In this document: one piece after another, positions 3,667 to 47,995 of the stretch
Numbering within the stretch: the first letter of the stretch is position 1
Layout: each line of letters begins with the position of its first letter
Assembly (NCBI GenBank): GCA_964386665.1
Contig: CAYLQP010000005.1
Coordinates: 177 to 64,176 of the forward strand
Source of the DNA: an uncultured Candidatus Saccharibacteria bacterium
GTDB taxonomy: Bacteria; Patescibacteriota; Minisyncoccia; Phycocordibacterales; CAIRYW01
DNA length: 64,000 nt
Reading direction: 5' to 3'
The notes under the pieces: generated by a model
The model's input: the letters and a program-made list of their open reading frames with translations, nothing else
Told to the model about the DNA's origin: nothing
Databases searched by the model: none
Program-made: the position numbers and the translations under genes

Positions 3667-4986
3667 TCACCTCGAAAAAAGTGATTTAAAGAAAAGAATT
3701 ATCCCCTTTTGACGGTCTTTTTGCTGTTCTTCAAATACTTCTACAAGTGGACTACGCTCACGAAAAGGACTTGTAGACGTCGTCTTTGGCGCTACATCAC
3801 TTGGTATATCTAATTCTTGCGAAGCAATCTCTGCATGCGTCATAGGAGAAACGAGCGTCTCCTCTGACTGTACCCTATCTGCGATTTGTCGTTTTAGCCT
3901 TACAAGTTCACGTAACATATCAGTTCTTTCTTCTGCAGAACCTTGGCCAAGAAAAACTGGTTTTAATGAAGCATTGCTTTGAGAAACAGCTACGCCAGAT
4001 GGGAAATACAACGAAACATCTTCTTTGTTACTTTCTATATTGAGTGGAATTCGAAGTGTCCTTTGAGGAAGAATAATTGTATCAGGAGCAATAACAAAAT
4101 GTGCATTTCCAAATTTGATAACCCATTTTCCAACATTTACTTCTTCATCCATTGGATTATTGAGTTCCACATATCCACCTATACCAGATACTACTTGAAC
4201 TATCTCAATCTTTGGATCAATCACCCTTACTTCTGTTCGAGCTACTGCGGAAGTACCAGACCGTCGACTATTTAATACGATCACATAATCTCCAGCAAAT
4301 TGATATATATGTTCAATTGTTTTTCCCCGCCCTGAAGTACCATCTCCAAAGGACCACTCAAATCGATTCTTGGTTTTTTTGTCATCAATGCCTGATGATT
4401 CTGCATTAAACTCAATAGGGGTATGAATGGTGGTAATTCGTTTTCGTCCCGCATCCACCTTAAACACCTCTGTTCTTTTAAGCTCTGATGTTTGTTCTTG
4501 GCTTGAGTGAGCGGATACCAATTTACTTCCAGATACACTACTACTTGTTTGACTACTGCCACTTGAAGTCGAAGCACTTGAGGACACCACAATCTCTTGT
4601 GTTGCCCGCAAGGTTTTACCAGTATCTCTTCCAACAAGAGTAACAGTAAGTGTATGTGTTCCAGACGTAGTATCTCGATAATAAAAAGTTCTCGAAGATG
4701 TGTTTTTGCTCATTGTGGTTGTAACCACATTACCAGTTGATCCTAGAAATTCCCCTGTATTCGAGCTTGAGCTAAATTCAACGTCATTTGTTTCAGTTAT
4801 TTTTTCTGCAGTTCCACTACTATTTTGAGTCTGAATTGTCAGTGGTCCAGAAAGCTGGTTTGGTCTCACTGATTGTTCTTCTGTCACAAAAGAAACATTT
4901 GAAATGAGACTTGTTTCCCCAAAAGAAGAAAGAGGCAAACACAAAAGAGAGGATAAGACCAAACAAAATGTTTTATACTTATTCAC
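3667..4986 (-). CDS. Secreted Ser/Thr-rich protein with a PKD-like domain
   Basis: N-terminal signal peptide (MNKYKTFCLVLSSLLCLPLSSFG). PKD-type motif FEWSFGDGTSGRGKTIEHIYQFAGDYVIVLN. Long S/T-rich stretches. Confidence 0.6.
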   Translation of the reverse strand: MNKYKTFCLVLSSLLCLPLSSFGETSLISNVSFVTEEQSVRPNQLSGPLTIQTQNSSGTAEKITETNDVEFSSSSNTGEFLGSTGNVVTTTMSKNTSSRTFYYRDTTSGTHTLTVTLVGRDTGKTLRATQEIVVSSSASTSSGSSQTSSSVSGSKLVSAHSSQEQTSELKRTEVFKVDAGRKRITTIHTPIEFNAESSGIDDKKTKNRFEWSFGDGTSGRGKTIEHIYQFAGDYVIVLNSRRSGTSAVARTEVRVIDPKIEIVQVVSGIGGYVELNNPMDEEVNVGKWVIKFGNAHFVIAPDTIILPQRTLRIPLNIESNKEDVSLYFPSGVAVSQSNASLKPVFLGQGSAEERTDMLRELVRLKRQIADRVQSEETLVSPMTHAEIASQELDIPSDVAPKTTSTSPFRERSPLVEVFEEQQKDRQKGIILFFKSLFSR

Positions 4987-5063
4987 ACTTTATATTTTAA
5001 ATTAAAATATTTTATTTGCAATAAGTCTTACACCTTCCCTCTTCTAAGAAAATAAACCTTGTA

Positions 5064-7058
5064 TTAAATCTGTTTGAAGAAATAAAGATCAATTTCTGGG
5101 AAGGTTCGTATTGAATCTTCAATGTATTTATTTAACTCAATACTTCCAGGAATACCAGGATTCAAATCGAATGCCTTTTTTGCATATTCACGTGCAACAT
5201 CAAACTTACCCATATACAAATACGCAACTGACTTCATCCAAAGTGGTTGTGGAGCGGTCGGTACCAGAATGATTGCCCTGTCTAATATCTCGTGAGCTTC
5301 TTTTAGCTTATCTACTCCAAAAAGCATAAAATATATTTGGGTATCAGCATAGTTTAGAAGCGCTCGAAAATTGTCTGGGTGCTTTGTTGTATAGGATTTA
5401 TATTCTTGTTCAAATCGTTCGAGCTCCTTTATAAGAAAAGAAACTTTTTTAGGATCGCTTAATACTTTTGGATTCTCACCTATTCCTCTTTGAAAATCAG
5501 TGAAAGTTCTCCAAAGGACCGCTTGTTTATCTACTGTTGTTGCAAAAAGTGTATCATAAAGAGGCAAACGTTTTTCTGCTGAACCTACGGTTCGAATTGA
5601 CCCATTAACAATTCCTGAAGTAAGGAATGGAAAAACTCCATACACCAAAGACCACAGACCAAAAAGTACAAAAATACTAGCAATCACCTGAACTCTCCCT
5701 TGTGGCAAATCTTTTTGGTCCGCTACATTTCCTTTATTATTAATTTCTCTAAAAAGAGAAAGTGACAAGGCAATCACCACCGCCAATAATACAAAAGAAA
5801 CTGAGGTATCGAACGAAGTTTGTAATTCAACCAAATGAAGAGTGCTATATATAAGCAGAGTCAATGCAAGTAATTTGTGAGATTTTTCTTTTGATATAAA
5901 TACAACACGCAAAAGCATATACCCAAGCACTATATAGATAGATATATACAACAATAATCCGACGAGTCCATTATCAAATGCTTGATCAATAAATATGTTG
6001 TGAGCTCGGTCAAACCAGGGTTCTCCACCAAACTCTGGAGTAAGAGTACGATTATCATAGTTACGTTCAAAGACCTTTTCGAAGTTTTCTGTCCCCCACC
6101 CTAACAAAGGTCTTTCTTTAATAAGCTCAGACGACATCTCCCAAACCAACGTTCGTCCACTTGTTGCTTGACTCAAATATAGATTTCGAAGAAATCCATT
6201 TTCAGAAAAAAGCGACATCGCACTAACACAAAGCATCACAAAAAATAAGTACAGAGATCCAAATGCAACATACTTCTGGATTTGTTGTTTCTTAATCTTT
6301 GAGATTATCCAAACACCAAACCATACCAACATCGACATAAACAAGACTGTCGCAGATGCTCTTGCTTCTCCAACAAAACGCAGTAACCCAACCCCTTCCG
6401 TACTTTTAATATTCAAAATATATGGATTCACCACAATCAATATTGGCAAAAGAAAGTTCCACCATTTTTTTTGGTCTGCAGAAAGCAAAAGATAGATTGA
6501 AAACAAAAATGTACCAAACAAATACATACCAGCAAATGTTGAGTTACCAAACGTAAATCCATCCCATGGTAACTTTTTAAACAAAAAATTAAATCCCTCT
6601 GGACCGAAAATAGATAACACCGAAAAGAGTGCTCCTGAAAAGACAGTAAGGAAAATAACTTTTCTTCTTTCTTTTGAATCCGCAAAGACATTTACAAGTA
6701 CTTGGGCAAAAAAACCGAGACAAACGATAAACCAAAGTCCCGTCATCCGAGTTATGTTTGAGTAAAACGAAGTAACAAAGTTACCATTTAGAAATGCCGA
6801 CAAAAACATACATGCGACGTATCCACACATACCTACTAAAAGCGGTGACTTAAAGAAAGTCATCTTTTGTTTTTTAAACATCGCAATACCTGTCAGAACC
6901 ATCAAAATAGAACTAATTAAAATCAGGTTGATTGCTCGTGTAGATGAACCGAAGTACAAAAACGACGTATAGTTAATAAATGGAAATGAAACCAAAAAAA
7001 CATACACTATATAACGAAATACATCTGTAACAAAGCTTTCTTTTTTAAATAAAAACAT
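5064..7058 (-). CDS. O-antigen ligase (Wzy_C)-like polytopic membrane protein with C-terminal TPR repeats
   Basis: 664 aa with >10 TM helices. A Wzy_C-like loop (WGTENFEKVFERNYD...FDRAHNIFIDQAFDNGLVGLL). C-terminal TPR-like repeats. Confidence 0.7.
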   Translation of the reverse strand: MFLFKKESFVTDVFRYIVYVFLVSFPFINYTSFLYFGSSTRAINLILISSILMVLTGIAMFKKQKMTFFKSPLLVGMCGYVACMFLSAFLNGNFVTSFYSNITRMTGLWFIVCLGFFAQVLVNVFADSKERRKVIFLTVFSGALFSVLSIFGPEGFNFLFKKLPWDGFTFGNSTFAGMYLFGTFLFSIYLLLSADQKKWWNFLLPILIVVNPYILNIKSTEGVGLLRFVGEARASATVLFMSMLVWFGVWIISKIKKQQIQKYVAFGSLYLFFVMLCVSAMSLFSENGFLRNLYLSQATSGRTLVWEMSSELIKERPLLGWGTENFEKVFERNYDNRTLTPEFGGEPWFDRAHNIFIDQAFDNGLVGLLLYISIYIVLGYMLLRVVFISKEKSHKLLALTLLIYSTLHLVELQTSFDTSVSFVLLAVVIALSLSLFREINNKGNVADQKDLPQGRVQVIASIFVLFGLWSLVYGVFPFLTSGIVNGSIRTVGSAEKRLPLYDTLFATTVDKQAVLWRTFTDFQRGIGENPKVLSDPKKVSFLIKELERFEQEYKSYTTKHPDNFRALLNYADTQIYFMLFGVDKLKEAHEILDRAIILVPTAPQPLWMKSVAYLYMGKFDVAREYAKKAFDLNPGIPGSIELNKYIEDSIRTFPEIDLYFFKQI

Positions 7059-7151: not shown

Positions 7152-9047
7152 TTAGTTAAGAACTTTGTATGAAGTCTTAAAGTCATCAAGATTTGAAGAG
7201 TAAGTATTAGCCATAGAAGTATCGTCTGAAGTATCCCATAGGATTCCATCGATAGCTGCTCGGTATTGTCCTGAAGTTCCTCCAGCTCCAAGTGGAACTG
7301 AGATAGAAAGTTCAAATGTTTCTTCTTCTCCTTCTTCAATTTGGTAGTTACCTACAGCAGTCTTGTCATCGTCAGTTGAGTTAACAAGAGTTGCAGAGAT
7401 TGTAGAAGCTGAAGTAGCTGTTCCTGCTTTGTCTACAGCCCAGTTTACTGATGTTCCATCAGTTGAGATTGAAGACATATAAACAGTATCTCCGATAGCT
7501 TTAACTTTGAATTTAAGTGTGAAGAGTCCAACATCGTCGTTAGTTGATGTTCCTACAGTTGCGTCTGTTGCAGTTGAAACGAGAGTAACTTGGATTCCTT
7601 CTGATCGGAATTCTTGTGCCTCTCCAATAGCTGTTCCAGATTTTTCTGTAGAGTCAGAGAGTTGATCTCCTTCTTCGTTTTCAACATCGATGTAATCTCG
7701 GTTTGTTGAAGTGATAGAAGCAGTAAGAGTGTCTCCTTCATCAGCTGTTCCATCGATATCTTCGATATTAGCAAGAACTTCGAATTCTACAGTGTCTCCA
7801 GCATCGATTGCGAAATCAAGGTTGTCGAATGTAACTGTAGCTGTTGCAGCTGAAGTAGATACAGTTTCTGTATATTCTTCATCTCCAAGAACAAGAGTAA
7901 CTGAAGTTGTAAGTTGATCTACATCTGTAGCTCCTGTAACTGTGAATGTTACTGGAAGTTCATCAAGAACAACATCTGAGTCTCCTTCGAGTTTCAATTT
8001 TCCTTTAAGAACTGAAACATCGTCAGTTACTTCTGATGCATCTACTACTACTACAGCTTCTTTTGGAGAATCAGTAGCCTTAGAAATTTTAAGTTCTGTG
8101 TCAGCAGCTGTTCCAAATGATACGAAGTCAAGTTCAACTGGAGAGTAAGTTACGTCTTCAGTAGAAACAACTCCTGATCCATCTTCAAATCGAACGTTTA
8201 CAACGTCGATTGTCCAAGCGTCAGTGTCGATATCTCCAGAGTCAAATGAATTTGCTCCGTCAACAGTTACGTAGAATTTCTCTATTTCTTCTGACTTAAC
8301 AACTGTTCCAGCTTTTACTGTTACAGTCTTAACCCATTTGTCGTTTGAATCTTCTGAGAACTCGTCAACATCAACTGATGCAATTTCAGTGTTTCCCATC
8401 CAAACTTTTACACCTGAGATGTAATCATCAAGGTGACTTGAGTCTCCAGATCCGTTTCCAGCTGGGTCAAGTGAAAGTTTGATAGATTTGATAGCGATGT
8501 CTCCATCGTTTGTAGCTTCGATTTCGAATCCAGCAACTTTTACATCTTCTTCACCTTCTCCAACTTCTTCGTCAGAGTATTGTGAAAGAGCTGAAAAATC
8601 TTGGATTGCTCCATCTGTTCCTTCAAGTGATGAAGTAGAACCAGTTGTTCCAGTTGTTCCTGTAGAACCACCAGTTGTTGTACATTTAGCAACAACTTTA
8701 GCTTGTGTAAGTGGTCCGAAGTATCCAGCTACTGGAGTTACTCCGTTCTCTGATTGGAACTTCATAACAGCAGCGTGTGTAAGTGGTCCGAAGTATCCAG
8801 ATGCTGGAGTTACTCCGAGGTATGATTGAAGTGCTGAAACATCAGCTCCACTCATTCCTTGTTTTAGGTCTCTAGTAAATGTAGGGCAAGATGCTGATGA
8901 TCCAGAAACAGCTGAAAGCTGTGCTGTAAGAGCTGCAATTTGCGCTTGTAGTTCAGCTGTAGTCATAGCAGAAGCAGGTGAAACTGCAACTACTGCGAAA
9001 GCAGCAACGGCTACAAAACCAGCAAGTGTTTTTGTGATTTTATTCAT
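7152..9047 (-). CDS. Secreted surface protein: N-terminal peptidoglycan-binding-like repeats, then a long acidic Thr/Asp/Glu/Gly-rich region
   Basis: Signal peptide. Two PG_binding_1-like repeats (GMSGADVSALQSYLGV...GYFGPLTHAAVMKFQ / ...GYFGPLTQAKV). The remainder is highly acidic and low-complexity. Confidence 0.65.
   Translation of the reverse strand: MNKITKTLAGFVAVAAFAVVAVSPASAMTTAELQAQIAALTAQLSAVSGSSASCPTFTRDLKQGMSGADVSALQSYLGVTPASGYFGPLTHAAVMKFQSENGVTPVAGYFGPLTQAKVVAKCTTTGGSTGTTGTTGSTSSLEGTDGAIQDFSALSQYSDEEVGEGEEDVKVAGFEIEATNDGDIAIKSIKLSLDPAGNGSGDSSHLDDYISGVKVWMGNTEIASVDVDEFSEDSNDKWVKTVTVKAGTVVKSEEIEKFYVTVDGANSFDSGDIDTDAWTIDVVNVRFEDGSGVVSTEDVTYSPVELDFVSFGTAADTELKISKATDSPKEAVVVVDASEVTDDVSVLKGKLKLEGDSDVVLDELPVTFTVTGATDVDQLTTSVTLVLGDEEYTETVSTSAATATVTFDNLDFAIDAGDTVEFEVLANIEDIDGTADEGDTLTASITSTNRDYIDVENEEGDQLSDSTEKSGTAIGEAQEFRSEGIQVTLVSTATDATVGTSTNDDVGLFTLKFKVKAIGDTVYMSSISTDGTSVNWAVDKAGTATSASTISATLVNSTDDDKTAVGNYQIEEGEEETFELSISVPLGAGGTSGQYRAAIDGILWDTSDDTSMANTYSSNLDDFKTSYKVLN
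8704..8820. repeat. 72-bp in-frame tandem duplication inside the surface-protein gene (encodes the duplicated GYFGPLT module)
   Basis: tgtgtaagtggtccgaagtatccag(c/a)t(a/g)ctggagttactccg at 8704 and again at 8776. The period is exactly 72 nt. Confidence 0.8.
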
Positions 9048-9604: not shown

Positions 9605-10393
9605 TTAGAGAAGCGAGTACTTGCTCCACCGTCTTTCACCTGTCTTTTTGAGTAGTCCTTGATTCAACAAATCATTCAACTCTCTTTGGATTGTCTTTTC
9701 ACTACAATCAGTGATCAAAGATGATATGTCCTTGATAGTGACCTCTTCTTTCATTTTTATTATATCGATAATCTTATCTTTTCTATCTGACTTTTGAAAC
9801 GAATTTGTTTGTCCTTGAGAATAAGACCTTTCGTTTTTTAGATCATCAACTACCCCTTTTTGAGATACTGTTCTAAAAGACGATTTAGTGTCTTTTATGT
9901 GTCCTTTAAAGGACACATTCTCATTTTGTTTTTCTGTGTGCATTAATGCCGAAAAAGGTGATGGCGTCTTCTCTACTTCCACCGCAAAAAAATGTTTATC
10001 AAGAGGAACAACATCTCGACTAAAACTATCGGTATATCCATCAAGCAACGTGATAAGTAAGTCACATTCCCTCACAATGATTTCCCCATTCATTTGTGAA
10101 ATATTTCGGGTAAAGATTCCAAGCTCAAGGAGCGATTTAATTGACTCGATCTGTCCTCCAAAGACACGTAAGAACTGCTCAACATTTGAAGTGTCCTTTA
10201 TATTAATAAGGTCTACTCCTGCCTGTCTTATAGATTGTTTCAAAGGTTCTGTGTCCTTTATTATGTCGGTTATGAGATAAAGAGCCTTACTTATCTTGAT
10301 GCTTTTTTTATGCACAAAGAAAAGGTTGTCACTGCCATAAAAGACATTGTTACGAGTTGAAATTTCTATGTTTTTGTCTTTTTTGAGTTCCAT
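9605..10393 (-). CDS. Putative transcriptional regulator with a C-terminal winged-helix / DeoR-like HTH
   Basis: 262 aa. The C-terminal segment EEVTIKDISSLITDCSEKTIQRELNDLLNQGLLKKTGERRWSKYSL is a typical HTH. The N-terminal domain is unrecognised. Confidence 0.45.
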   Translation of the reverse strand: MELKKDKNIEISTRNNVFYGSDNLFFVHKKSIKISKALYLITDIIKDTEPLKQSIRQAGVDLINIKDTSNVEQFLRVFGGQIESIKSLLELGIFTRNISQMNGEIIVRECDLLITLLDGYTDSFSRDVVPLDKHFFAVEVEKTPSPFSALMHTEKQNENVSFKGHIKDTKSSFRTVSQKGVVDDLKNERSYSQGQTNSFQKSDRKDKIIDIIKMKEEVTIKDISSLITDCSEKTIQRELNDLLNQGLLKKTGERRWSKYSLL

Positions 10394-10602
10394 TTGTCTT
10401 TTTTAAGATTTTGTCCCTTTATCATATAAAAGACAGCTTTATTGTCAATAAGACAAGCTTTTCTTTTTATGCTTTGACTCTTGTGTTATCGACACAGACC
10501 GTGAGTTTTCCACAGGGTAAAAGTAATCTTGAAAATCTAAAATTAGATTTCGGGAATGTGCGTTTTTTTGGTAAAATAAAGAGGTATATAACTTACATTT
10601 TA

Positions 10603-12822
10603 ATGAAACAAAAAACAACAAAAAACCTAAAACGTGGAACTGAACGTTCTTATCGAAAAGAGGAAGAAAAAGACAGTGGTCTTAAAAACGAAACACTTCA
10701 AAGTATCGTCGCAATACTCTTTTTTATTGGAGCATTCTTTCTTCTTATCGCATCGTTTGGTAAAGGAGGAACTCTAGGGGAAGTCTTCTTCAATTTCTTC
10801 CACAAACTCTCTGGTGTTGGGTATTATCTTATGCCAGTAAGTCTTGTTATTCTTGGAACCGCTTTCGGTAAAAACATCGCTCATCGTTTTCCTATTCTTA
10901 AGATGCTCAGTGGACTTATCTTTTTTTTGGCAGGGCTTGGTCTTATAGAAATCGCAAGTAGTGGAAACGGAGGGAGTCTTGGAACAATGATCTCAAAACC
11001 ACTCATCTATCTATTTGATGTCTATACATCAATCGCTCTGCTTTCTGCTTTCATTATTATTTCTCTTTTGATTATTTTTGACACCCACCTTAAACGAGAC
11101 TTTTTGTTCTTCTGGAAAAAGAAAGATGACTTATTCGAAGATGATGAGGATGATCTTGAAGACCTAAAAGTAAGCAGTGGTGGTGAACGAGTAAAAAAAG
11201 AATCTCTCATCAATACTGAAAAAGAGAACTTGAAAGAATCTCAGCAGAAGACTCAAAAACTTGATCCTGTTGTTGCAACCAAAAAACCTGAACCTGAAGA
11301 GGAATCATTTATCAAAGGAACCCCTATTCTTCATAACAAGACATATACCCCACCCCCTCTTTCACTTCTTGAAAACGATAAAGGAAAGCCTCAAGTAGGA
11401 GACATCAAAGCTCAAGCGAACATCATTAAACGAACTCTTCAAAACTTCGGGATTAATGTTGAGATGGATGAAGTAACCATTGGACCAACCGTCACACGTT
11501 ACACCCTTAAGCCTGCCGAAGGAGTGAAACTTTCCCGAATCGTTGGTCTTCAGGATAACCTCGCGCTCGCTCTTGCAGCTCAATCTATCCGTATCGAAGC
11601 ACCCGTTCCTGGTAAGTCTCTTGTGGGTATCGAAGTACCAAATACAGCCAAAACAACAGTTGGGCTCGGAACACTTATGGGAAGCAAGGAATTTCAAAAC
11701 TCTGACAAACCACTTCTTATGGGGATTGGAAAAAATGTTTCTGGAGAAGGAGTATTCTATGACCTTGCAAAAATGCCTCACCTTCTTATTGCAGGAACAA
11801 CTGGTTCTGGAAAGTCAGTAACCGTTCACGCTCTTCTTACCTCTCTTTTGTATCGCAACAGTCCAGATATGCTCAAGTTTATTATGGTGGATGCGAAACG
11901 CGTGGAACTTACTCTTTATAACAAGATTCCCCACCTTCTTACTCCTGTTATTACAGACGCAAAGAAAACTATCCTTGCTCTTAAATGGGCAGCAAAAGAA
12001 ATGGATCGAAGATACAACGTACTTGAAACACAGTCAGTTCGAGACATTTCTTCGTACCACAAAAACATCGTAGCACCTGCACTCAAAGCCTATAAAGGCA
12101 AAGAAGGTGAAACCGTTCCTGAAACAATGCCTTATATCGTTGTTGTGATAGATGAACTTGCAGACCTTATGCAAGCATATCCTCGTGAACTTGAAAGCTC
12201 TATCGTTCGCCTCGCCCAAATGTCTCGAGCGGTTGGAATCCACCTTGTGCTCTCAACTCAACGACCATCAGTAAATGTTATTACCGGACTTATCAAAGCA
12301 AATATTCCTACCCGAATAGCCCTTAAGGTAGGAAGTCAGATTGATTCACGAACTATTATCGACAAAGCAGGTGCTGAAAAACTTGTAGGACAAGGAGATA
12401 TGCTCTTCTCTTCTCAGGAACGTCCAGAACCTGTCCGAATCCAGTCACCATATATATCTGAAAATGAACTCAAAGGAGTAGTTAAATATATCGTTGATGC
12501 ATACAAAGACGAGATCCCTGCAACAGGTATTACTCTGGGAGACCAAGGAGGAGAAACCGAGAAGAACGCGCTTTTTGATGGAGATGCAATGCAAGATGAT
12601 GCCGATGACGACGATCTATACGAAGACGCTCGAGAAGTGGTTATTCAAGCTGGTAAAGCTTCTACTTCATACATTCAAAGAAAACTCCGGGTTGGATACT
12701 CTCGCGCAGCTCGACTTATGGATATTCTCGAAGCAAAAGGAGTGATTGGTCCAGCTGACGGATCAAAGCCTCGTGAAGTTCTTGAAGGAAAAGCTTCAGA
12801 TACTTCTGAAGAAACGGTTTAA
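10603..12822 (+). CDS. ftsK: DNA translocase FtsK/SpoIIIE
   Basis: N-terminal TM segments, an acidic linker, then the motor domain with Walker A AGTTGSGKSV and the C-terminal gamma winged helix (YIQRKLRVGYSRAARLMDILEAKGVIG). The start is placed at the in-frame ATG at 10603; the ORF track begins at 10411. Confidence 0.9.
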   Translation: MKQKTTKNLKRGTERSYRKEEEKDSGLKNETLQSIVAILFFIGAFFLLIASFGKGGTLGEVFFNFFHKLSGVGYYLMPVSLVILGTAFGKNIAHRFPILKMLSGLIFFLAGLGLIEIASSGNGGSLGTMISKPLIYLFDVYTSIALLSAFIIISLLIIFDTHLKRDFLFFWKKKDDLFEDDEDDLEDLKVSSGGERVKKESLINTEKENLKESQQKTQKLDPVVATKKPEPEEESFIKGTPILHNKTYTPPPLSLLENDKGKPQVGDIKAQANIIKRTLQNFGINVEMDEVTIGPTVTRYTLKPAEGVKLSRIVGLQDNLALALAAQSIRIEAPVPGKSLVGIEVPNTAKTTVGLGTLMGSKEFQNSDKPLLMGIGKNVSGEGVFYDLAKMPHLLIAGTTGSGKSVTVHALLTSLLYRNSPDMLKFIMVDAKRVELTLYNKIPHLLTPVITDAKKTILALKWAAKEMDRRYNVLETQSVRDISSYHKNIVAPALKAYKGKEGETVPETMPYIVVVIDELADLMQAYPRELESSIVRLAQMSRAVGIHLVLSTQRPSVNVITGLIKANIPTRIALKVGSQIDSRTIIDKAGAEKLVGQGDMLFSSQERPEPVRIQSPYISENELKGVVKYIVDAYKDEIPATGITLGDQGGETEKNALFDGDAMQDDADDDDLYEDAREVVIQAGKASTSYIQRKLRVGYSRAARLMDILEAKGVIGPADGSKPREVLEGKASDTSEETV

Positions 12823-18422: not shown

Positions 18423-19865
18423 TTATTTCCTCAAAAAAAGTGGAGTTTCAGGCATTTTGTTTGCTTTGATACATTCTTTGATTTTTCTTGAAGTTTCAGG
18501 CAACAGTGGACTAAGCATTCGTCCTATTGTATAAAGCTTTTTGATTAATTCTTCCAAGATTTTGAGTGCCTCATTCTTGTCTGTTTTGATTAGTCTAAAC
18601 GGTTCCTTTGTTTGAATGATGCTATCAAGTTCCCCAATGTGTCGCCAAACAAGATCTGCAAGCGCCTTGAAATCAAAAGTTTCTGCGATTTGCCAGTACT
18701 CATCTGGAATAGTATTTTCTTCAATAGTGACAGGCTTCTCTAGATGAGTCTCTGCCATCTTCATAATACGGCTTGTTAAGTTCCCTATTCCATTCGCAAG
18801 ATTCGCATTATAACTTTCAAGAAGTTTTTCTTTTGACACCGCAGTGTCTTCAAACGGATGAAATTCTCGAAGCACAAAATACCGAAGCGCATCTGTTCCG
18901 TATTCTTCTATAATTTCAAGTGGATCAATTGTATTACCAAGTGTCTTTGACATCTTCACCCCTCCTTCTCCAAGGATAAATCCGTTTACGATGATCTGGC
19001 GTGTAAGTGGTAAATCAGCCGCCATAAGCATCGCCTGCCACATCACCCCTTGAAATCGAGTGTTATCTTTGCCACAGTATTGCGTCGGAGTACCATTTAC
19101 CCAATATGTTTCAAAATCTCCATCTGTTTTAGGCCACCCAAGTGTTGAAATATAATTTGTCAGTGCATCAAACCACACATACATCACGTGCTCATCATCG
19201 TTTGGTACTGGAACACCCCAAGACATTTTGCTCTTGAGGCGAGAAATCGAGAAATCCTCAAGCCCTCGTTTGATAAACTCTCGCATCTCATTCATTCTAA
19301 AAGAAGGAACAATGAAGTTTGGGTTTTCTTCGTAATATTTCAAAAGTTTTTCACCAAAGGCCGAAAATGTAAAAAAGTAATTTTCTTCTTGTATTAATTC
19401 AGGAACCCGATTATGTTCTGGGCATTTCCCATCAACAAGCTCACTTTCTGTTCTTTCTCGTTCACATCCAACACAATATTTGGCCGTGTAATTTTTCTTG
19501 TAAATAAATCCATTCTTTTCACAGCGTCGCCAAAACTCCCCCGCCGCTTTTATATGATGTTCATCGGTCGTTCGAATCAGATGAAGTCCCTCCGCTTCTT
19601 CTAATACTCCAAACTTTTTTAATGTTTCTTTAAAAAGATTGGCATAAAAATCAGTGTATTCTTGTGGCGTTTGACTTACCTTTTGTGCTGATTCAAAAAT
19701 CTTTGCTCCGTGTTCATCTGTCCCTGTATTAAAAAAGACGTCACATCCTTGAAGTTTTTTGATACGCGCGAGAGTATCGGCACGGACAATTTCAGTTGCA
19801 TGTCCCAAATGAAGTGGTGCATTTACATACGGAAGTGTAGTTGTAAGATAGAAAGCTTTTGACAT
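18423..19865 (-). CDS. metG: Methionine--tRNA ligase (short form)
   Basis: HIGH-type motif PYVNAPLHLGHA near the N-terminus; KMSKT (KMSKS) motif; 480 aa. Confidence 0.93.
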   Translation of the reverse strand: MSKAFYLTTTLPYVNAPLHLGHATEIVRADTLARIKKLQGCDVFFNTGTDEHGAKIFESAQKVSQTPQEYTDFYANLFKETLKKFGVLEEAEGLHLIRTTDEHHIKAAGEFWRRCEKNGFIYKKNYTAKYCVGCERERTESELVDGKCPEHNRVPELIQEENYFFTFSAFGEKLLKYYEENPNFIVPSFRMNEMREFIKRGLEDFSISRLKSKMSWGVPVPNDDEHVMYVWFDALTNYISTLGWPKTDGDFETYWVNGTPTQYCGKDNTRFQGVMWQAMLMAADLPLTRQIIVNGFILGEGGVKMSKTLGNTIDPLEIIEEYGTDALRYFVLREFHPFEDTAVSKEKLLESYNANLANGIGNLTSRIMKMAETHLEKPVTIEENTIPDEYWQIAETFDFKALADLVWRHIGELDSIIQTKEPFRLIKTDKNEALKILEELIKKLYTIGRMLSPLLPETSRKIKECIKANKMPETPLFLRK

Positions 19866-42088: not shown

Positions 42089-42133
42089 GCGCCGAAATTT
42101 TGAACAACTTCGTTGTACTCAAAATTTCGGCGC
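42089..42133. repeat. 45-nt palindrome (gcgccgaaattttga ... tcaaaatttcggcgc) with a 15-bp stem
   Basis: Read directly. It shares the CGCCGAAATT core with the hairpin at 46462-46482 and is followed by the ccctatca motif that starts the r1 repeats. Confidence 0.7.
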
Positions 42134-42360
42134 CCTATCACCCCACCACACTCGTGATGAAGTGAACAAGTTGGAGAAAGATCTTACACTTTCTCCAGAA
42201 ATCAAAGAACTTCTATCTCGTTACACCAAGCCCTTCTTGATGTATATTTTCTACGTGCGAGCACACGATCATTTTTCGGTATGATTACCTTCTATGTGAA
42301 AGGAGTTAGTTTCTTCCTGCTCTCACTTCTGTTCACACGGCAAGAGAGTGCCGCGGTTCC

Positions 42361-42714
42361 TTACTCGGGATTGCCAGTAACAACAACGAGTCCATTGTGG
42401 TCATCGGACATAACTTTGACATCATATCCACTTCCCATAATTGCATCTTCAAACGCTTGCAACTCCTCCATGGTGGTGTATTCCACCCCGAGGAAAACTG
42501 CAGGTCGTCCGTTTTGCACGGCTCGTACTGCTCTCGCTATCAAATCCGCTCCACCCCAAGCAATCGTTTCGTCACGACCGGCTTCGGAGAAATCAATCTC
42601 CCAAGACCAACCCTTCCGAACAAACTCTCCCAGGAGAGCTATTGGATTTTGACCACTTGGAACTTCACGAGTTTGACCTTCGTATGGTCCAGTCAAAGCA
42701 GTTACTTTGATCAT
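42361..42714 (-). CDS. Hypothetical protein (117 aa), mid-GC
   Basis: Clean ORF whose start codon lies 2 nt from repeat r1a. No motif. Confidence 0.4.
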   Translation of the reverse strand: MIKVTALTGPYEGQTREVPSGQNPIALLGEFVRKGWSWEIDFSEAGRDETIAWGGADLIARAVRAVQNGRPAVFLGVEYTTMEELQAFEDAIMGSGYDVKVMSDDHNGLVVVTGNPE

Positions 42715-42715
42715 A

Positions 42716-42880
42716 CCCTATCAGTCCACAAGGCTTTGCAGACTGAATTGGGAGGAGCTTCGATGTTACCAACACCGAAGCTCCTTGTAACCATTTTGCT
42801 TCCTCACGGAAGCAAAAATTTTTTCTCATTTTCAAAGGCAGAGAAATTCTCCTTCCTATTATTCATCCCGCATAGGTGCG
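42716..42880. repeat. Composite repeat module, copy 1: r1a (ccctatcagtccacaaggctttgcagactgaattgggaggag) + hairpin 1 + the ~93-bp r2a
   Basis: r1 recurs at 43732 and 46429. r2 (aaccattttgcttcctcacggaagcaaaa...cgcataggtgcg) recurs at 44094-44185 with one mismatch. Confidence 0.85.
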
Positions 42881-42888
42881 TTTGTTAC

Positions 42889-43590
42889 TTAATTATCAAC
42901 GATCTCCGTGCATTGTGACCAACACGGATGAGCTTTCTTACTCACCGGAAGGTTGTGTGCTTCATCAAGAGTCTTTTGCAGAACCTTAAGCAGGCTCTGC
43001 AAGACTTCTGCCGACATAAACATAGGCTCTGCCCATAGGTGAATTTCTGCCACCTGTTTACTGACCAACCCATTATGATCAGCCACCTCTTCGGCGATCA
43101 CAGCCCAAGGCCCAGAGGTCTCGAGGGTCCACGCCTGCCCCCACCAATAAGTGGTAGGGCGGCCATTGCCACCTTCTTCCAGTATGACTGGGAAATTTTG
43201 GTACGTGGCTGGCACGGTACTCCGTGCCGTTGGATAGTAACAATGAAGATTTTGCTGATAACCCTTCAGCAGAACCTTTTCATCCGCCTGGTGATGGCGG
43301 ATGATTTTATACGACACGCCCTTGTCGTATAAAAACTTCATGACAGGACATCCCGGGGGAGTCCGAAGAAAACAGTACGCAGACCGCGTACTGTTGTGAA
43401 AAGTTATGTACCCGTCGCTGGGTACATTAAATTTCCACAAATCTTTCTGCGCTGCACCCGAGGTGCTGCGCAGACAAAATTTTCCCTCCTCCATCCACCC
43501 CCACCAGGAGTGGTAAAAATTTTTCTGTTCCGTGGCGGAGGTGCCACGGAGTTCTTGTTTGATCTGGGCGATTATGAATGACCGTTCCAT
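42889..43590 (-). CDS. Hypothetical protein (233 aa), Trp/His-rich, mid-GC
   Basis: Sits between repeat module copies. No recognised motif. Confidence 0.4.
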   Translation of the reverse strand: MERSFIIAQIKQELRGTSATEQKNFYHSWWGWMEEGKFCLRSTSGAAQKDLWKFNVPSDGYITFHNSTRSAYCFLRTPPGCPVMKFLYDKGVSYKIIRHHQADEKVLLKGYQQNLHCYYPTARSTVPATYQNFPVILEEGGNGRPTTYWWGQAWTLETSGPWAVIAEEVADHNGLVSKQVAEIHLWAEPMFMSAEVLQSLLKVLQKTLDEAHNLPVSKKAHPCWSQCTEIVDN

Positions 43591-43731
43591 TTTTATTTTT
43601 CTTCCTTTAAATTCTCAGCGCGAAAGAAAACGCTATATCTGATTTTGTGCAGAGTTCTATTTATATTAACCTGCGTATTTTTATATCAAATCAGAAAGAT
43701 ATGTTTTGTTGGTTCAAAACCTAGGTTCACT

Positions 43732-43797
43732 CCTATCAATCCACAAGGCTTTGCAGACTGAATTGGGAGGAGCACAAGTAACCAAACTCGTGCTCCT
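43732..43797. repeat. Repeat r1b + hairpin 2 (aggagcacaag-taaccaaa-ctcgtgctcct)
   Basis: Same 5' flank gaattgggagga and the same loop taaccaaac as hairpins 1 and 3, but with a different, compensated stem sequence. Confidence 0.8.
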
Positions 43798-43825
43798 AAA
43801 TAAATGTTTCTCCTAATAAAAGGAG

Positions 43826-43852
43826 ATAAGGGAGACGGGACTCGAACCCGCA
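43826..43852 (-). tRNA. tRNA-like 3' fragment (T-arm GCGGGTTCGAGTCCCGT + acceptor 3' strand CTCCCTT); no 5' half found
   Basis: The reverse complement reads gcgggttcgagtcccgtctccctta, a canonical T-stem/T-loop. No D-arm or anticodon arm could be fitted upstream, so it looks like a remnant or attachment-site duplicate. Confidence 0.45.
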
Positions 43853-44049
43853 TAAGATTGTTACCACACCACGTTTTCCATTAAATCAAGCCATATGCAT
43901 CGAAAATCGATGCTTTTTGTACTTTTTTTAAAACGCGTAGCAGCTCCAATCCTCGATTGCTCGTACAGCCTTCGCAGGCTTGCGCTTTGTCCGATTTAAG
44001 CTACTCCCCCCTAAAGAACCCTATGAACCAACGACGCTTGTCGCGGGTT

Positions 44050-44185
44050 CAATTGGGAGGAAGTGCGACGTAACCAAACATCGCACTTCCTTTAACCATT
44101 TTGCTTCCTCACGGAAGCAAAAACTTTTTCTCATTTTCAAAGGCAGAGAAATTCTCCTTCCTATTATTCATCCCGCATAGGTGCG
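44050..44185. repeat. Hairpin 3 (ggaagtgcgacg-taaccaaaca-tcgcacttcc) + r2b (93-bp near-identical copy of r2a)
   Basis: 44094-44185 matches 42789-42880 with a single t/c difference. Confidence 0.85.
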
Positions 44186-44193
44186 GTGTTTTT

Positions 44194-45732
44194 TTAATTT
44201 GCAGACGACCGGGAGTTCCAGAATCTGCCAAGGGCGACGCGCGCAGTAGACTGCGCGCGCGACTCCTTATTGAGGAGCCACTGCACCGGGACAAAGCGCC
44301 GGTGTGCCCAGCCGTTCGCCGCCATAAAGGCGGCGGTGCCACGCTCGCAGTTGCCTGCAGCGTAGCTATCCGCGAGACAAGCGAGGACGGTAACGTTCGC
44401 CGGCAACTCCAGACCATTGGCTTTCGCCTCACGGTCTTGTGTTGCCCAGGCCTCGGCCGCAAGTCGGATGGCATACCTCTGCCAATACTTGGCAGATCCG
44501 CCGACTTTTTTTCCAGCATCCTCCTTAGGTCGGATTATTTCTAATCCGTTGCCCCAGGCACGGCTGACCTGGGACCATTCCGAGGTCTGGAGGATAGCCT
44601 CAGTTGGTTGCTCTGAAGGCAACCAACTGAGGTGATACGTCCGCCCTGTGGCAATATTCTTCACCACAGTCTGCCTGCGCAGACCAGTGCACCGCCGACG
44701 GTAAAAGTCGGCAACCAACCCCTCCACCACCTCGTGGCCGCGAAGTGTAGCTGAAGCCACAACAAACATTTTGACTCCGTCATCCTGCCGCATGGGCGGC
44801 AGAATGATTTGATCATAATGTTGCCCTTCCGCCATTCTCTGGCGGAAGAATTCCCGAGCCTCGGGCACCATCGCCCGCCACTGATCGTGGTGGAATCCGC
44901 GGAACCGAACGAATTCGGTGACGCGGAATTTTTCGATATGCACTCCAGTGAAGTGTGCGAGGGTCCGTAGGGCCAACCGCTGACCCAGCTTATTCCCGCG
45001 TTTTGGCCCGCGGGGAGCCGCAAGTTCACCCATCACAACCGTCCAAGGGACGGACTCAATCCCGAAGGGACCGAGAATTTCTTTCGCCCGGCAGAGGCCG
45101 GACGAAATCGCCCGGTATGCCCTGCCAGGTGTTTCCCACCTCTCCATCGAGGAGCCGGTGAGAAATGCGGTCATGTGACCGCAGTGATGATTGCGGGGCG
45201 AGTTCATTCCTCGCAACGGCGCTTTTGCGAGCGCCGTTGCGGCGCGGCGAAACCATGCGGGATGTTCCCCCACCAGTTCCCCCATGGCTTTCATCCAGCC
45301 TGCGGTGCGAGCGCACCGCTCCATGTCAGCGGCTGGCACTCTGTGCCAACCATGCCAGCACATGGAGCCTACAAACTGGCTGGGGCAGGTGCCCCAGTTC
45401 GATGGTAGGATAGGGGTTTCATTACCCCCCTCATATGTTGGTGGCCCTGATAGGGCTGCCAGTGCATCCTTGAGTGGCTTTTCGCCACTCGTGAGAATCC
45501 GCGCAATTACTGCACGGGTTGATGTGTCCCCCCAGCGGTTTGCACCACCGGGGAATTTATTTTTTTTACCAAACGCTCCTCTCGGGCGCACGAGGCGCCG
45601 ACAATCGGCCTCACGGCCGAGGAAGAAACGCAGGTCACGGATTGAAAACAATGAAAACTTCATTGTTTGATGACAGGTAACGTTACTGCAGACGGAAACT
45701 GTTTTTCGCAATATGCGAGTCGGATGTTTCAA
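44194..45732 (-). CDS. Hypothetical 512-aa protein in a ~60% GC insert (possible replication or transposition function; unassigned)
   Basis: An uninterrupted 1.5-kb ORF in GC-rich DNA, which is unlikely by chance. Rich in R, W, H and C. Contains AHFTGVHI and KYWQRY (YxxxY) about 160 aa apart, which weakly resembles HUH-nuclease motif order. No firm family assignment. Confidence 0.45.
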   Translation of the reverse strand: MKHPTRILRKTVSVCSNVTCHQTMKFSLFSIRDLRFFLGREADCRRLVRPRGAFGKKNKFPGGANRWGDTSTRAVIARILTSGEKPLKDALAALSGPPTYEGGNETPILPSNWGTCPSQFVGSMCWHGWHRVPAADMERCARTAGWMKAMGELVGEHPAWFRRAATALAKAPLRGMNSPRNHHCGHMTAFLTGSSMERWETPGRAYRAISSGLCRAKEILGPFGIESVPWTVVMGELAAPRGPKRGNKLGQRLALRTLAHFTGVHIEKFRVTEFVRFRGFHHDQWRAMVPEAREFFRQRMAEGQHYDQIILPPMRQDDGVKMFVVASATLRGHEVVEGLVADFYRRRCTGLRRQTVVKNIATGRTYHLSWLPSEQPTEAILQTSEWSQVSRAWGNGLEIIRPKEDAGKKVGGSAKYWQRYAIRLAAEAWATQDREAKANGLELPANVTVLACLADSYAAGNCERGTAAFMAANGWAHRRFVPVQWLLNKESRAQSTARVALGRFWNSRSSAN

Positions 45733-45966
45733 CGACTACTTTCTAGTTTTACCCTCCCTCATACGAGTTTAGGTTCCAGAAAAGCATTTTGACCGCAAAA
45801 TAAATTGTAGGCACAAAATGCTTTTCTGGAAAATCCTATCGCAAACAAAAACTTTGACACTTTTGTTTGCGAACAAGATGCAGAAAATTAACCAAAATTT
45901 TCTGCAAAAACCTTTCCAACACTTCACCCCACCACGGAGTATGGTAGTTGGCCTACCATCGTTTCT

Positions 45967-46395
45967 TCAGAGGTCGAATTGCTCAACCTCTTCGACACTG
46001 GCCGGGATGGCCAGCACGTTGGTCTCCCCGCGGGAGACCCTGTTGATCTCCCGCATCACTGCGGGAGACCCGAGTGACCGAAGCGCGAAGCGCGCTCCGG
46101 TCTTCCGCATCGGGATCATCCCAATGCGACCGAGTAGTTCGGCGCGACTCAGGTCGCGCCGAATGATTTCGAGAGGGAGAGCGATCTCGGTACCCTCCCC
46201 CTCAATGCGCAGTACAATCTTGACCAACTCCTGCGCGAGCTGGCGGGTGCGCCTTGCGGCAACCCAGAGAGCCACGGCGGCAATACCGCCGATGGCCCCG
46301 CAAATGTCGGCCACGCCACTGACGAAATCCATGAAACTCATGGCAGCCCCGGATCTACCCCGGTAACTCCGCAATTTTGAGCGCGTGATCCTCAA
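45967..46395 (-). CDS. Hypothetical 142-aa protein in the high-GC insert (one TM helix)
   Basis: Co-oriented with the 512-aa ORF. Hydrophobic segment FVSGVADICGAIGGIAAVALWVAA. Competing ORFs exist in other frames because of GC richness. Confidence 0.3.
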   Translation of the reverse strand: MRITRSKLRSYRGRSGAAMSFMDFVSGVADICGAIGGIAAVALWVAARRTRQLAQELVKIVLRIEGEGTEIALPLEIIRRDLSRAELLGRIGMIPMRKTGARFALRSLGSPAVMREINRVSRGETNVLAIPASVEEVEQFDL

Positions 46396-46428
46396 TTTTG
46401 AGCTGAAGTGAAATGCTCTAGGTTTTTT

Positions 46429-46482
46429 CCTATCAACTTACAAGCTTTGCAAGCTGAATAAGACGCCGAAATTGCTTTCGGC
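46429..46482. repeat. Repeat r1c (cctatcaacttacaagctttgcaagctgaat) + hairpin 4 (gccgaaattgctttcggc)
   Basis: Third r1 copy, located exactly at the distal edge of the high-GC insert. Confidence 0.75.
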
Positions 46483-47239
46483 TACTTATAACCACAAGCA
46501 AGTAAAAAGCGAAAGTATTCTTTCTTTTTTTACGAGTCGCCGTGGTTGTATACCAAAAATTTAAATAGAATTTTTGGTATATAAAGAAAAACGTTTAGCA
46601 TCTCTTTGGTGCATCACCTTTTTCTTCATCTGTCCTCATCTTACGATATTTCACAAGCTCATAACCCGTGTCGTAAAACTCAAACTATTTAGTTTTCAAA
46701 ATCCATAGTACGACCCGATGGTTATACTATCCCTCTTGATTTTGGTTACTCTCTCCTCAGAGAATTTCCCTCTATCTGGGATATTCCTCAAGACAAAGTT
46801 GGTTAGACTTTCTCTCGAGACGATATCCCCTCGAACTATGTTCGAGATGTTCTCGTGTCACGAAGTGTTTGGGTTGCCCGAAACGTCTTCTTGTATATAT
46901 AGACTGGTTTCTAAGCACTCTATATTCATCGAAGCTTCGCCTTTAGAAACAAGGTGTACAAAAGGGTGCTATTCACGCCGGCTTACTTAGGCCTTTGTAG
47001 ATCTTCACTCTCTCCTCAGAGGTGTGAAGAACACTCTTTTATCTACCTTCTCAATGTTCTTTACTGTGAATAGTATAGCATCTTCTTTACATATTGTCAA
47101 TAATGTGTGGCAATTTATTATTTAATCATCGAATATATTGTGACAAAAGGCTAAAAACTCTTATTTTTAGTTATCCACTTGTCATAAACTTGTGACAGTA
47201 TTATACTATAAGTACATTATGAAATAACCCATATAACGT

Positions 47240-47995
47240 ATGTACCAAGAATATCTTGCAAAATCAGGGCTTTCGAAAGATCAGGCAACTATATATGACC
47301 TTCTTCTTCAATATGGAAATATTGGGGCTAGTAAGCTATCTAAACTCTCTGGGCTTAAACGAGGGCTCACCTACAAAGTGATTGATCAACTTATTGAACT
47401 TGGGCTTTGTGAGAAAAACGACAAACTATCGAAGATAACTCTTTTCTTCCCTGCCCATCCTTCAAAAATCAAAGAGTTATTTGAAAAGAAAAAAGAAGAA
47501 GCCAAACTTGCTGAAGAAGCACTTACGGGAATGATGGGACAAATGATCTCAACCTTTAACCTCGCTTCTGGTAAACCTAATGTGCAGTTTTTTGAGGGGC
47601 TGGAGGGGGTATGGAAAGTACTGGAAGATTCTTTGACTGCAACCACAACCATTGATGCGTACAGTGATATTGAATCAATCGAAAAATATATTCCTGAAGT
47701 AAATAAAAAATATGTAGAGAAGCGTGAAAAATTTAAAATCAAAAAACGAGGACTTATCCTCGATACTCCAAAAGCTCGCGCACTTCTTGAGGGATACCAT
47801 ACAGATGTAACAGAAAATAAATTTATAAAATGCTCACTTACTCCAAACCAAACACAGACAATCATTCAAATTTATGAAAACAAAGTTTCATTTATTACTC
47901 TTGGCGAAAACACAATGTTTGGAACAATTATTGAAGATATTCATATTTATGAATTACATAAATATCTCTACCAATCTTTGTGGGAGAAGTTTTAA
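47240..47995 (+). CDS. TrmB-like transcriptional regulator (N-terminal winged HTH)
   Basis: LSKDQATIYDLLLQYGNIGASKLSKLSGLKRGLTYKVIDQLIELGL matches a TrmB-type HTH. 251 aa. Confidence 0.55.
   Translation: MYQEYLAKSGLSKDQATIYDLLLQYGNIGASKLSKLSGLKRGLTYKVIDQLIELGLCEKNDKLSKITLFFPAHPSKIKELFEKKKEEAKLAEEALTGMMGQMISTFNLASGKPNVQFFEGLEGVWKVLEDSLTATTTIDAYSDIESIEKYIPEVNKKYVEKREKFKIKKRGLILDTPKARALLEGYHTDVTENKFIKCSLTPNQTQTIIQIYENKVSFITLGENTMFGTIIEDIHIYELHKYLYQSLWEKF

Follow-up and report, generated by a model that had tools for sequence, protein, structure and literature searches.

Phage T7 early mRNA carries intercistronic RNase III signals (R0.3-R1.3), irregular hairpins between the cistrons of one long transcript, in which an asymmetric internal loop separates a lower from an upper stem and whose cleavage leaves a protective hairpin on the upstream message. 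Processed Gram-positive operons carry 5' and 3' stabiliser hairpins. Here we describe a repeated element, which we call T+H, from a 64,000-nucleotide stretch (the window) of the genome of an uncultured Candidatus Saccharibacteria bacterium (contig CAYLQP010000005.1). On the minus strand, which is the gene strand, the element consists of a stable hairpin (T) followed 5-7 nt further on by a second hairpin (H), and it lies between the genes of a small accessory array. T+H may be likened to the T7 and Gram-positive signals as a repeated irregular hairpin between cistrons, but it differs from the T7 signals in being bipartite, in keeping its sequence over distant lineages of the candidate phyla radiation (CPR, or Patescibacteria), and in belonging to chromosomal accessory arrays and not to a phage early region.

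Integrons and clusters of attC sites lacking integron integrases (CALINs) offer another comparison. As in these, the genes are small, co-oriented and of orphan or defence type, their order is shuffled among relatives and their composition is heterogeneous, and the hairpins are imperfect, with conserved bases, an extrahelical base and variable tips. The arrays described here differ in being without an adjacent IntI integrase with attI and Pc and without R''/R' cores; the conserved ends of H read CUUAU/CUUUAU-U-U(S)A ... U(S)A-UAGG/UAGAG, with no AAC...GTT cores. T+H also folds on the gene-sense strand, always includes the extra hairpin T, and has its apparent junction at the 5' base of the hairpin instead of at its 3' end. 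The missing integrase alone is not decisive against an integron, since CALIN arrays are also without IntI. Repetitive extragenic palindromes (REPs) and bacterial interspersed mosaic elements resemble T+H as short imperfect palindromes between operon genes, able to stabilise the upstream mRNA. However, REPs are dispersed genome-wide in both orientations and are tied to REP-associated tyrosine transposases, whereas T+H is confined to arrays and has a single orientation and a fixed two-hairpin architecture.

The two-hairpin module in the Saccharibacteria island

The window has ~37% GC overall and carries housekeeping genes that include the 5' end of the large-subunit (LSU) rRNA, RecA, FtsK, several aminoacyl-tRNA synthetases, ThyA and NusG; its relatives are found among the Patescibacteria/CPR. 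Within it, a 4.3-kb island (42.1-46.5 kb) of 48-62% GC holds four minus-strand genes, g4, g3, g2 and g1. Read in the gene sense, the island has the order unit - g4 - unit - g3 - r2 - unit - X - unit - g2 - r2 - unit - g1 - U3 - unit - terminal hairpin, where each unit is one copy of T+H, r2 is a 3'-untranslated-region (3'-UTR) module present twice, X is a spacer and U3 is a non-coding module. All six units found in the window lie within the island (Table 1).

T often begins GGAG.. and ends ..CUCC, often with a UUGGUU apex. H has a basal helix P1 of 4-6 bp (e.g. CUUA/UAGG or CUUUA/UAGAG), a bulged U or small internal loop, and a helix P2 of at least 11 bp with U-S-A...U-S-A at its base and a variable tip, for a total length of 25-56 nt. 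About nine near-invariant nucleotides cluster round the internal loop. The r2 module that precedes two of the units folds into three small hairpins, which in copy C are CGCA..UGCG, UUUCUC..GAGAAA and GCUUCC-GUGA-GGAAGC; the GUGA loop of the third is kept in the related array L007 despite 4 double compensatory changes. The whole 179-nt spacer between g2 and g1 folds at -69.5 kcal/mol (z -7.7). A small open reading frame (ORF) through r2 and the hairpin was considered and rejected, the frame differing between the copies. A short motif, (A)GUUCUUUAAAA, often lies 0-12 nt 3' of H (44012-44020 on the minus strand of the window, and in L010, L024, L026 and L028).

The first-pass annotation of this stretch had listed a direct repeat r1, three hairpins and the segment r2, and we find that these belong to one module, T corresponding to the three hairpins and H to r1. 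It had missed that r1 is the second hairpin of a bipartite unit, that the functional strand is the minus strand, and that hammerheads occupy the same slot in relatives. Much of its description holds. Copies r1a (42717-42748) and r1b (43732-43763) fit its degenerate pattern exactly, with 0 chance matches expected, and are 98% identical over 42 nt; the repeat copy that it placed at 46429 (r1c) exists but is diverged and carries an indel. The motif AATTGGGAGGA has exactly three occurrences (42746, 43761 and 44051), and r2 is indeed duplicated (42781-42894 versus 44086-44199, 92% over 114 nt, with a core of 93 nt and one mismatch). The three hairpins exist as described, their stems differing with complementarity kept and their apices alike, these being UUGGUU or GGU in the gene sense.

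Other parts had to be recast. The 6-bp inverted repeat noted in r1 is there, but in the gene sense it is truly an 11-bp hairpin, UCAGUCUGCAA-agcc-UUGUGGACUGA, with two G·U pairs, formed on the minus strand only and followed by UAGG. What was written as gaattgggagga plus hairpin is present and reads, in the gene strand, as the stable hairpin T, the linker CCCAAU and then r1. The hairpin at 44050, listed without an r1, has its own r1-equivalent H of differing sequence at 44051-44024. Instead of three sites there are six units, the additional ones including those at about 45906-45835 and 42197-42133, and the distances from r1 to the start codons, given as 2, 143 and 36 nt, come to about 2 and about 141 nt and, for the last, 33 or 87 nt according to which start codon is taken.

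Related arrays, covariation and hammerheads

Array contigs of relatives, designated L007 to L032, were gathered via homology to the island; g3 has four homologues and g1 eleven, and g1 was found in at least seven arrays with differing neighbours. The homologue contigs carry arrays of co-oriented small, mostly orphan genes, usually under a divergent TrmB-like gene, and a motif scan of GTDB species representatives added one Saccharibacteria metagenome-assembled genome (MAG) with an identical layout. T+H units occupy intergenic regions in all these arrays. Taken together, 36 curated copies and the matches of a covariance model (CM) give at least 45 copies of H in 10 loci of different CPR genomes, every one intergenic and on the gene strand. 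The CM, seeded with 27 short H copies, returned 38 matches at E<=4e-4 in nine loci, plus five in L032, all on the gene strand and including at least 16 copies outside the seed; in the 64-kb window it finds only five island copies (E 2e-9 to 4e-8). Two sequence families of H can be distinguished, CUUAU-UCA...UGA-UAGG, to which the window belongs, and ACUUUAU-UGAGUC...GGAUUCA-UAGAG, which differs from the first through compensatory flips at the helix base. These copies from other genomes bear out two proposals of the first-pass annotation, namely that a conserved loop with compensatory stems reflects selection on structure and that the repeats mark a cassette-like system upstream of hypothetical genes. 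With relatives carrying the element, it is neither confined to this genome nor a matter of local duplication alone.

For the analysis of covariation we used an ungapped alignment of the basal parts of 35 H copies, the variant at 45872 being left out. Paired cells amounted to 90.1%, against 78% in shuffled alignments (0/500 shuffles as high) and about 40% with the partners slid; the pairing percentage of P2 is biased, because pairing there belonged to the selection rule, while the variety of pair types is unbiased and P1 had no role in choosing copies. The P2 pair 10-25 is CG in 18 copies, GC in 15 and AU in 2 (unpaired 0), the P1 pair 4-30 is CG in 21 and UA in 14 (unpaired 0), and the P1 pair 3-31 is CG in 16, UA in 8 and AU in 3, with 7 unpaired cells. 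In 36/36 copies the fold of the sense strand is better than that of the antisense strand. G·U accounts for 80 of 486 pairs and occurs in the gene strand only, the opposite strand having A·C mismatches at these positions.

The hairpin upstream is equally regular in its placement. T ends 5-7 nt before P2 in 32/36 units, which leaves no room for a promoter between T and H, and the 46 nt upstream fold at a mean z of -3.56. A (U)UGGU(U) apex is common to eleven T hairpins, drawn from six genomes and otherwise unrelated in their stems, and A(A/U)GGUUA stands just 5' of the stem in 9 of these 11. A terminator scan was passed by two of the six T hairpins in the window, those at 46482 and 45906. It was not passed by the three hairpins of the first-pass annotation, which are followed by CCCAAUU and no U tract; (A)CUUUAUU follows many T hairpins in other loci.

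T+H matches no described RNA family. A Rfam search of the whole window at the gathering threshold returned only LSU rRNA, and searches at E-value thresholds of the island, L024, L026, L028 and L032 returned only hammerheads, tRNAs and chance miRNA matches; neither T nor H matched any of the Rfam 15 families in any locus, even at E<=5. Exact-pattern scans of public collections recover narrow subfamilies only, since the family is too variable. A core-plus-loop pattern had 3 matches in IMG/VR, all of them chance matches within genes and without a hairpin, and a family-B pattern had 0 there; the subfamily pattern CTTATTCACTT..GGGTGATWGG gave 11 matches in JGI metagenomes, almost all without a convincing hairpin, and a stricter pattern found one Saccharibacteria MAG only among the GTDB species representatives. 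Literature searches on integrons, attC, ribozymes or hammerheads in Saccharibacteria, Patescibacteria or CPR yielded nothing relevant.

Hammerheads were detected in the position of H in two of the related loci. In L026, three intergenic spacers have type III hammerhead cores in place of H, each directly after a hairpin, one of which has the UUGGUU apex. In L032, the syntenic array uses T+H, and two other TrmB-headed arrays on that contig carry three hammerheads. Rfam scores were 31.9-42.3 bits for four of the candidates and 21.4 for one, the last being found by regular expression only, with a gathering score of 48.5. No hammerhead was found in the window between 41900 and 46800 even at E<=5, and we found no literature on hammerheads in CPR. 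Type III hammerheads (RF00008) lie between genes in bacteria and phages; in the L026 and L032 arrays T+H shares with them slot, strand and upstream hairpin, and the P1, bulged U and P2 of H topologically resemble stem III, the cleavage nucleotide and stem I. Nonetheless, H consists of two helices without stem II or the CUGANGA/GAAA core, the Rfam models (RF00008, clan CL00010) fail to match it, and the would-be essential G5 is C in half of the H copies, paired with its partner. We rejected CUGAUAGG as a hammerhead CUGAUGA core because its G covaries as a base pair.

Comparison with L007 and L026 showed where the arrays exchange material. The g3 block (leader, gene, r2, T and linker) stops at the first base of H (window 44051, L007 2806), and a block r2-T-H-g1-U3-T-H (42880-42133) is collinear with L007 2669-3500; since the flanking blocks end there, the window has an extra T|H-bounded segment, [H3-X-T2-H-g2-r2-T1], relative to L007. 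In L026 and the window we observed recombinants of both kinds, with the same T and a different H and with the same H and a different T. Non-coding modules are exchanged as well: U3 (160-240 nt) follows g1 in the window and in L007 and an unrelated 81-aa gene in L032, and the ribosome-binding module of g2 recurs ahead of another gene in L007. As exchange borders also fall at ORF|U3 and UTR|ORF, homologous exchange at any conserved non-coding module would suffice, and the mosaics do not require a dedicated crossover site. No integrase, transposase, reverse transcriptase or HUH protein was found in the window, where all ORFs of at least 150 aa were checked for recombinases.

Possible roles of T+H

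We give about an even chance to the reading that T+H is an RNA-level signal for intercistronic processing and stability, and we are just as evenly divided on the broader proposal that the module sets off from one another the accessory genes of a polycistronic array, which are shuffled horizontally and stand under TrmBL2-type regulation. An RNA-level function is the most economical, because the module is co-oriented with the genes, the gene strand alone folds, there is no space for a promoter between T and H, the array has a single strong head promoter, and the slot is equivalent to that of a self-cleaving ribozyme. The structure and position of T+H are compatible with an RNase III-type processing signal. 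The array would be transcribed from the head promoter as a single RNA, and an endonuclease, for which RNase III-like or RNase Y-like enzymes are candidates, would cleave it in or close to the conserved internal loop that lies between T and P2. After the cut the upstream cistron would end in a protective T and the downstream cistron would start with H; in sister arrays, the type III hammerhead right after the upstream hairpin would make the equivalent cut autonomously. As a secondary role, the conserved modules could serve as portable homology for swapping ORFs and non-coding modules between arrays, which would produce the mosaic pattern (the same r2 with different T, the same H with different T).

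Several observations weigh against RNA processing. RNase III sites are rarely conserved in sequence over such divergent lineages, and the invariant U/U-A/A-U/G positions point to a partner of greater specificity. U-rich tracts come after several of the T hairpins (CUUAUU, ACUUUAUU), which could simply terminate transcription. In the window, units also stand ahead of the first gene and behind the last, and a pure between-cistron role needs neither. The homology breaks exactly at T|H (44051, and 2806 in L007; the L026 mosaics) would also suit site-specific recombination, and processing leaves unexplained both the conserved UUGGUUA apex and the A(A/U)GGUUA found just 5' of T stems in many units. 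The six hammerheads are all below threshold in Rfam, although stems I-III and the CUGANGA/GAAA core are intact, and the set of loci was drawn via homology to the island.

At the DNA level, H might be an attC-like recombination site, as single-stranded DNA or a cruciform, at which a recombinase encoded elsewhere (e.g. the host Xer) inserts and excises [H...gene...T], crossing over at the bulged U that separates the linker from P2; in that case the arrays would form an integron-like platform that has no integrase. This would account for co-oriented, mostly orphan small genes whose order and content vary among relatives (g1 being in at least seven arrays), for defence-type cassettes (Csx23-like, Csx3, HicA, GNAT), for GC that differs sharply between units and host, for the extra segment relative to L007 that ends exactly on T|H junctions and for the T/H mosaics in L026 and the window, and H resembles attC in its imperfect pairing, conserved base, extrahelical base and variable tip. 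We nevertheless consider it unlikely: neither the 64-kb window nor the surroundings of most arrays have a gene for a tyrosine or serine recombinase, a transposase or a HUH protein, the gene at the array head is a TrmBL2-type regulator, RYYYAAC/GTTRRRY cores are absent, exchange borders fall at ORF|U3 and UTR|ORF too, as homologous recombination predicts, and RNA-only hammerheads take the place of H in sister arrays. The gene (top) strand is also the one that folds better, whereas attC uses the bottom strand, so that the attC/att candidate of the first-pass annotation fails on the integrase, on the R''/R' cores and on the strand. TTCTTAT..TGATA as a pC194 nick site was rejected, as it occurs in one subfamily only. 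That T+H is instead a new class of small ribozyme that cleaves itself, or a ribozyme-like element for which Mg2+ suffices, and is functionally interchangeable with hammerhead III, strikes us as quite improbable. P1 would then take the part of stem III, the bulged U that of the cleavage nucleotide and P2 that of stem I, with T docking or stacking on the internal loop. H does sit precisely in the hammerhead slot after an upstream hairpin, with about nine near-invariant nucleotides round its internal loop, a T apex conserved across genomes and no Rfam match even at E<=5, and the twister-sister, pistol and hatchet classes were discovered through proximity to hammerhead or twister loci. But plain Watson-Crick pairs at the base of P2 make up most of the conserved positions, there is no evident pseudoknot or multi-helix junction, and two stacked hairpins are simpler than any known self-cleaving class. 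No covarying partner of the T apex was found either: a downstream AACC occurs in some family-A copies only, and a pseudoknot between the two was rejected as not general.

If T were an intrinsic terminator for each gene, and H with its flanks a promoter or operator for, e.g., the TrmB-like regulator or an alternative sigma factor, the genes would be independent co-regulated cassettes. T is GC-rich, many copies have U-rich tracts after them and two in the window pass the terminator scan; the flanks weakly resemble -35/-10 hexamers (TTGAGT ... TAGAGT, TGATAGGGT), and a TrmB-type regulator is always close by. We regard such transcriptional punctuation as very unlikely, since the conserved flanks lie 25-56 nt apart, a spacing that varies with hairpin length and is at odds with a sigma-70 promoter, which we rejected on this ground, or with an operator of fixed spacing. 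Covariation and G·U pairs point to selection on single-strand folding and not on duplex sequence, and CCCAAUU without a U tract follows the three T hairpins first described. The variable spacing excludes the promoter that the first-pass annotation had suggested, and its operator module is likely to lie elsewhere, in the operator-like palindrome of the head region (about 47178-47196) and not in H. A selfish or neutral repeat, either MITE-like (miniature inverted-repeat transposable element) or REP-like or a local segmental duplication that has drifted, is extremely unlikely and largely refuted. The copies r1a and r1b (98%) and those of r2 (99% over 93 nt) are clearly recent duplications or conversions within the island, but the element occurs in at least eight other genomes with differing sequence and the same structure, always in one orientation and between array genes only, has no copies in the other 60 kb of the window, and shows compensatory changes far above both controls, shuffled and slid. 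Neither terminal inverted repeats nor target-site duplications were seen, and with its single orientation and confinement to arrays the MITE proposal is set aside as well. Among the candidates first put forward, a small structured RNA or cassette module fits best. The boldest combination, in which T+H would be an undescribed class of self-cleaving ribozyme, or the obligate substrate of a dedicated CPR nuclease, interchangeable with the hammerhead in a TrmBL2-type-controlled, integrase-less, integron-like platform, we regard as a long shot.

The array head and other features of the island

The array is headed by a divergent gene for a TrmB-like regulator, which has 222 CPR homologues. The AlphaFold model of the protein (predicted local distance difference test score, pLDDT, 91) has as its best PDB match, over the full length, TrmBL2 (5box, E 1e-13), an archaeal DNA-binding regulator and chromatin protein. 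The same TrmB-like gene heads arrays in L008, L009, L010, L023, L026 and L032. The palindrome in the head region, which overlaps the divergent promoters between the TrmB-like gene and the array, is kept in L007 (about 100-120) and L032 (about 9960-9990) as TGTCACA-N3-4-T(R)TGACA and is probably the operator of the regulator. A motif (GGUAA)GAGGAGAGAGUG, preceded by GCCGGUAAGCGCGG in several loci, recurs in long leaders at array heads (window about 47000-47020 and about 46745-46765 on the minus strand; L007 about 380 and about 735; L008 about 7590; L023 about 4740; L032 about 9790) and has no Rfam match. L028 has three tandem promoter-like repeats (TTGACAAAT...TATGCTATGATG) at 4850-5100, in a 1.6-kb non-coding array head without a TrmB gene. 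Another structured motif without a Rfam match, AAUGUUAUUCCUCUU-(hairpin)-AAGAGGGGUUGCAU, was observed in long spacers of three arrays (L023 about 5020-5130, L026 about 10560-10680 and L028 about 5850-5950).

None of g1-g4 matched Pfam or PHROG. The g4 product has an N-terminal transmembrane helix and matches Csx23, a type III CRISPR-associated, cyclic-oligoadenylate-binding membrane effector; there are no CRISPR or cas genes in the 64-kb window, and the related array L024 has a Csx3-domain gene (3495-3842). Over 129 nt the g3 5' leader matches L007 (1049-1177) at 91% identity, whereas the g3 block as a whole reaches 73%. L008, L009 and L032 retain the core of the leader, ...CGCAUAUUGCGAAAAACAGUUUCCGUCUGCAGUAACGUUACCUG, as well, and a long hairpin at 45770-45835 precedes it. 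Because conservation of the leader far exceeds that of the block, with the core retained and the long hairpin ahead, the sequence suggests a cis-regulatory RNA. The g3 homologues in L007 and L032 appear likewise GC-rich amid AT-rich surroundings, so that base composition seems to move together with the gene. Neither g3 nor the spacer DNA had a match in phage and plasmid collections, and exact-protein look-ups of g1, g2 and the regulator returned the same strain only, its contigs broken at repeats.

The spacer X has no homologue in the other loci. It contains a fragment resembling a tRNA T-arm and acceptor, GCGGGUUCGAGUCCCGUCUCCC (about 43822-43860 on the minus strand), which may have been left behind by an integration site or by a cassette that decayed. 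Neither ARAGORN nor Rfam detects a full tRNA there, and X was rejected as an att remnant of a tRNA gene on this basis. U3, with counterparts at L007 3250-3393 and L032 6663-6779, is possibly a small RNA or else a structured 3' UTR. Elsewhere in the window we noted a 70-nt repeat pair with terminator-like hairpins near the rRNA end (960-1029 and 2400-2469) and a tandem-like 57-nt repeat of 88% identity (8700-8756 and 8772-8828) inside the gene of a 631-aa peptidoglycan-binding protein.

Table 1. Coordinates of the T+H units, genes and associated features in the window, with the hammerhead candidates of related loci. Parts of each unit are listed in gene-strand order.
Feature	Position	Strand	Details
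Unit 1, before g4 (r1c)	46429..46482	-	T 46482-46465, GNRA loop GCAA; linker GTCTTAT; H 46457-46433; TAGG; CM match 46426-46465, E 1e-8
Unit 2, g4 to g3	45835..45906	-	T 45906-45879, UUGGUU apex; linker TCTTGT; H 45872-45839, UCG...CGA base variant; TAGG; hand-curated, not recovered by CM at E<=1
Unit 3	44019..44091	-	T (hairpin 3 of the first-pass annotation) 44091-44058; linker CCCAAT; H 44051-44024, UGAACCCGCGAC-aagc-GUCGUUGGUUCA; TAGGG; CM match 44017-44059, E 1.8e-9
Unit 4, before g2	43732..43797	-	T (hairpin 2 of the first-pass annotation) 43797-43768; linker CCCAAT; H (r1b) 43761-43736; TAGG; CM match 43729-43769, E 4e-8
Unit 5, g2 to g1	42716..42785	-	T (hairpin 1 of the first-pass annotation) 42785-42753; linker CCCAAT; H (r1a) 42746-42721; TAGGG; g1 ATG 2 nt past TAGGG; CM match 42714-42754, E 1e-8
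Unit 6, after last gene	42133..42197	-	T 42197-42172; linker ACTTGT; H 42165-42138, UCACUUCAUCAC..GUGGUGGGGUGA; TAGGG; CM match 42131-42173, E 4.5e-9
r2 copy C, 3'-UTR module of g3	44093..44185	-	three small hairpins and AAAAUGGUUA
r2 copy A	42793..42885	-	near-identical duplicate of copy C by sequence comparison
TrmB/TrmBL2-like winged-helix regulator gene	47240..47995	+	divergent from array; Pfam TrmB, E 8e-8
Palindrome TGTCACA-N4-TATGACA	about 47178-47196		likely TrmB operator
Head promoter TTGACA-17-TATACT with TG	47072..47100	-	promoter scan, 11/12 match; points into array
g4, 124 aa, Csx23-like membrane protein	45967..46341	-	PADLOC PDLC01550 Csx23, E 9e-19
g3, 489 aa, no known domain, >60% GC	44194..45663	-	conserved 5' leader at 45664-45792
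X, gene-less spacer, ~220 nt	43798..44018	-	with tRNA T-arm-like fragment
g2, 233 aa, no known domain	42889..43590	-	homologous region L007 3708-4194
g1, 117 aa, recurrent array gene	42361..42714	-	12 homologues in arrays with differing neighbours
U3, conserved non-coding module after g1	42198..42360	-	74-80% identity to L007, L032
Long perfect hairpin GCGCCGAAATTTTGA...TCAAAATTTCGGCGC closing island	42089..42132		found in sequence; L007 synteny stops here
Hammerhead III candidates, L026	8535-8585, 10439-10490, 12515-12566		between array genes
Hammerhead III candidates, L032	3856-3910, 18628-18682, about 19701-19760		between array genes

The tiny genomes of CPR/Patescibacteria are still poorly understood, not least in the way their accessory genes are organised, expressed and exchanged. 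The locus described here belongs to a recurrent type, in which a TrmBL2-like regulator and a strong promoter precede an array of orphan and defence-type genes, and in which the array genes are separated by a conserved, strand-specific, RNA-like two-hairpin module that is interchangeable with hammerhead ribozymes. At 45-90 nt the module is a concrete candidate for RNA processing or self-cleavage, and its covariance model provides a handle for locating such arrays across metagenomes. The arrays also offer a system for asking how cassette-like shuffling proceeds without an integron integrase.

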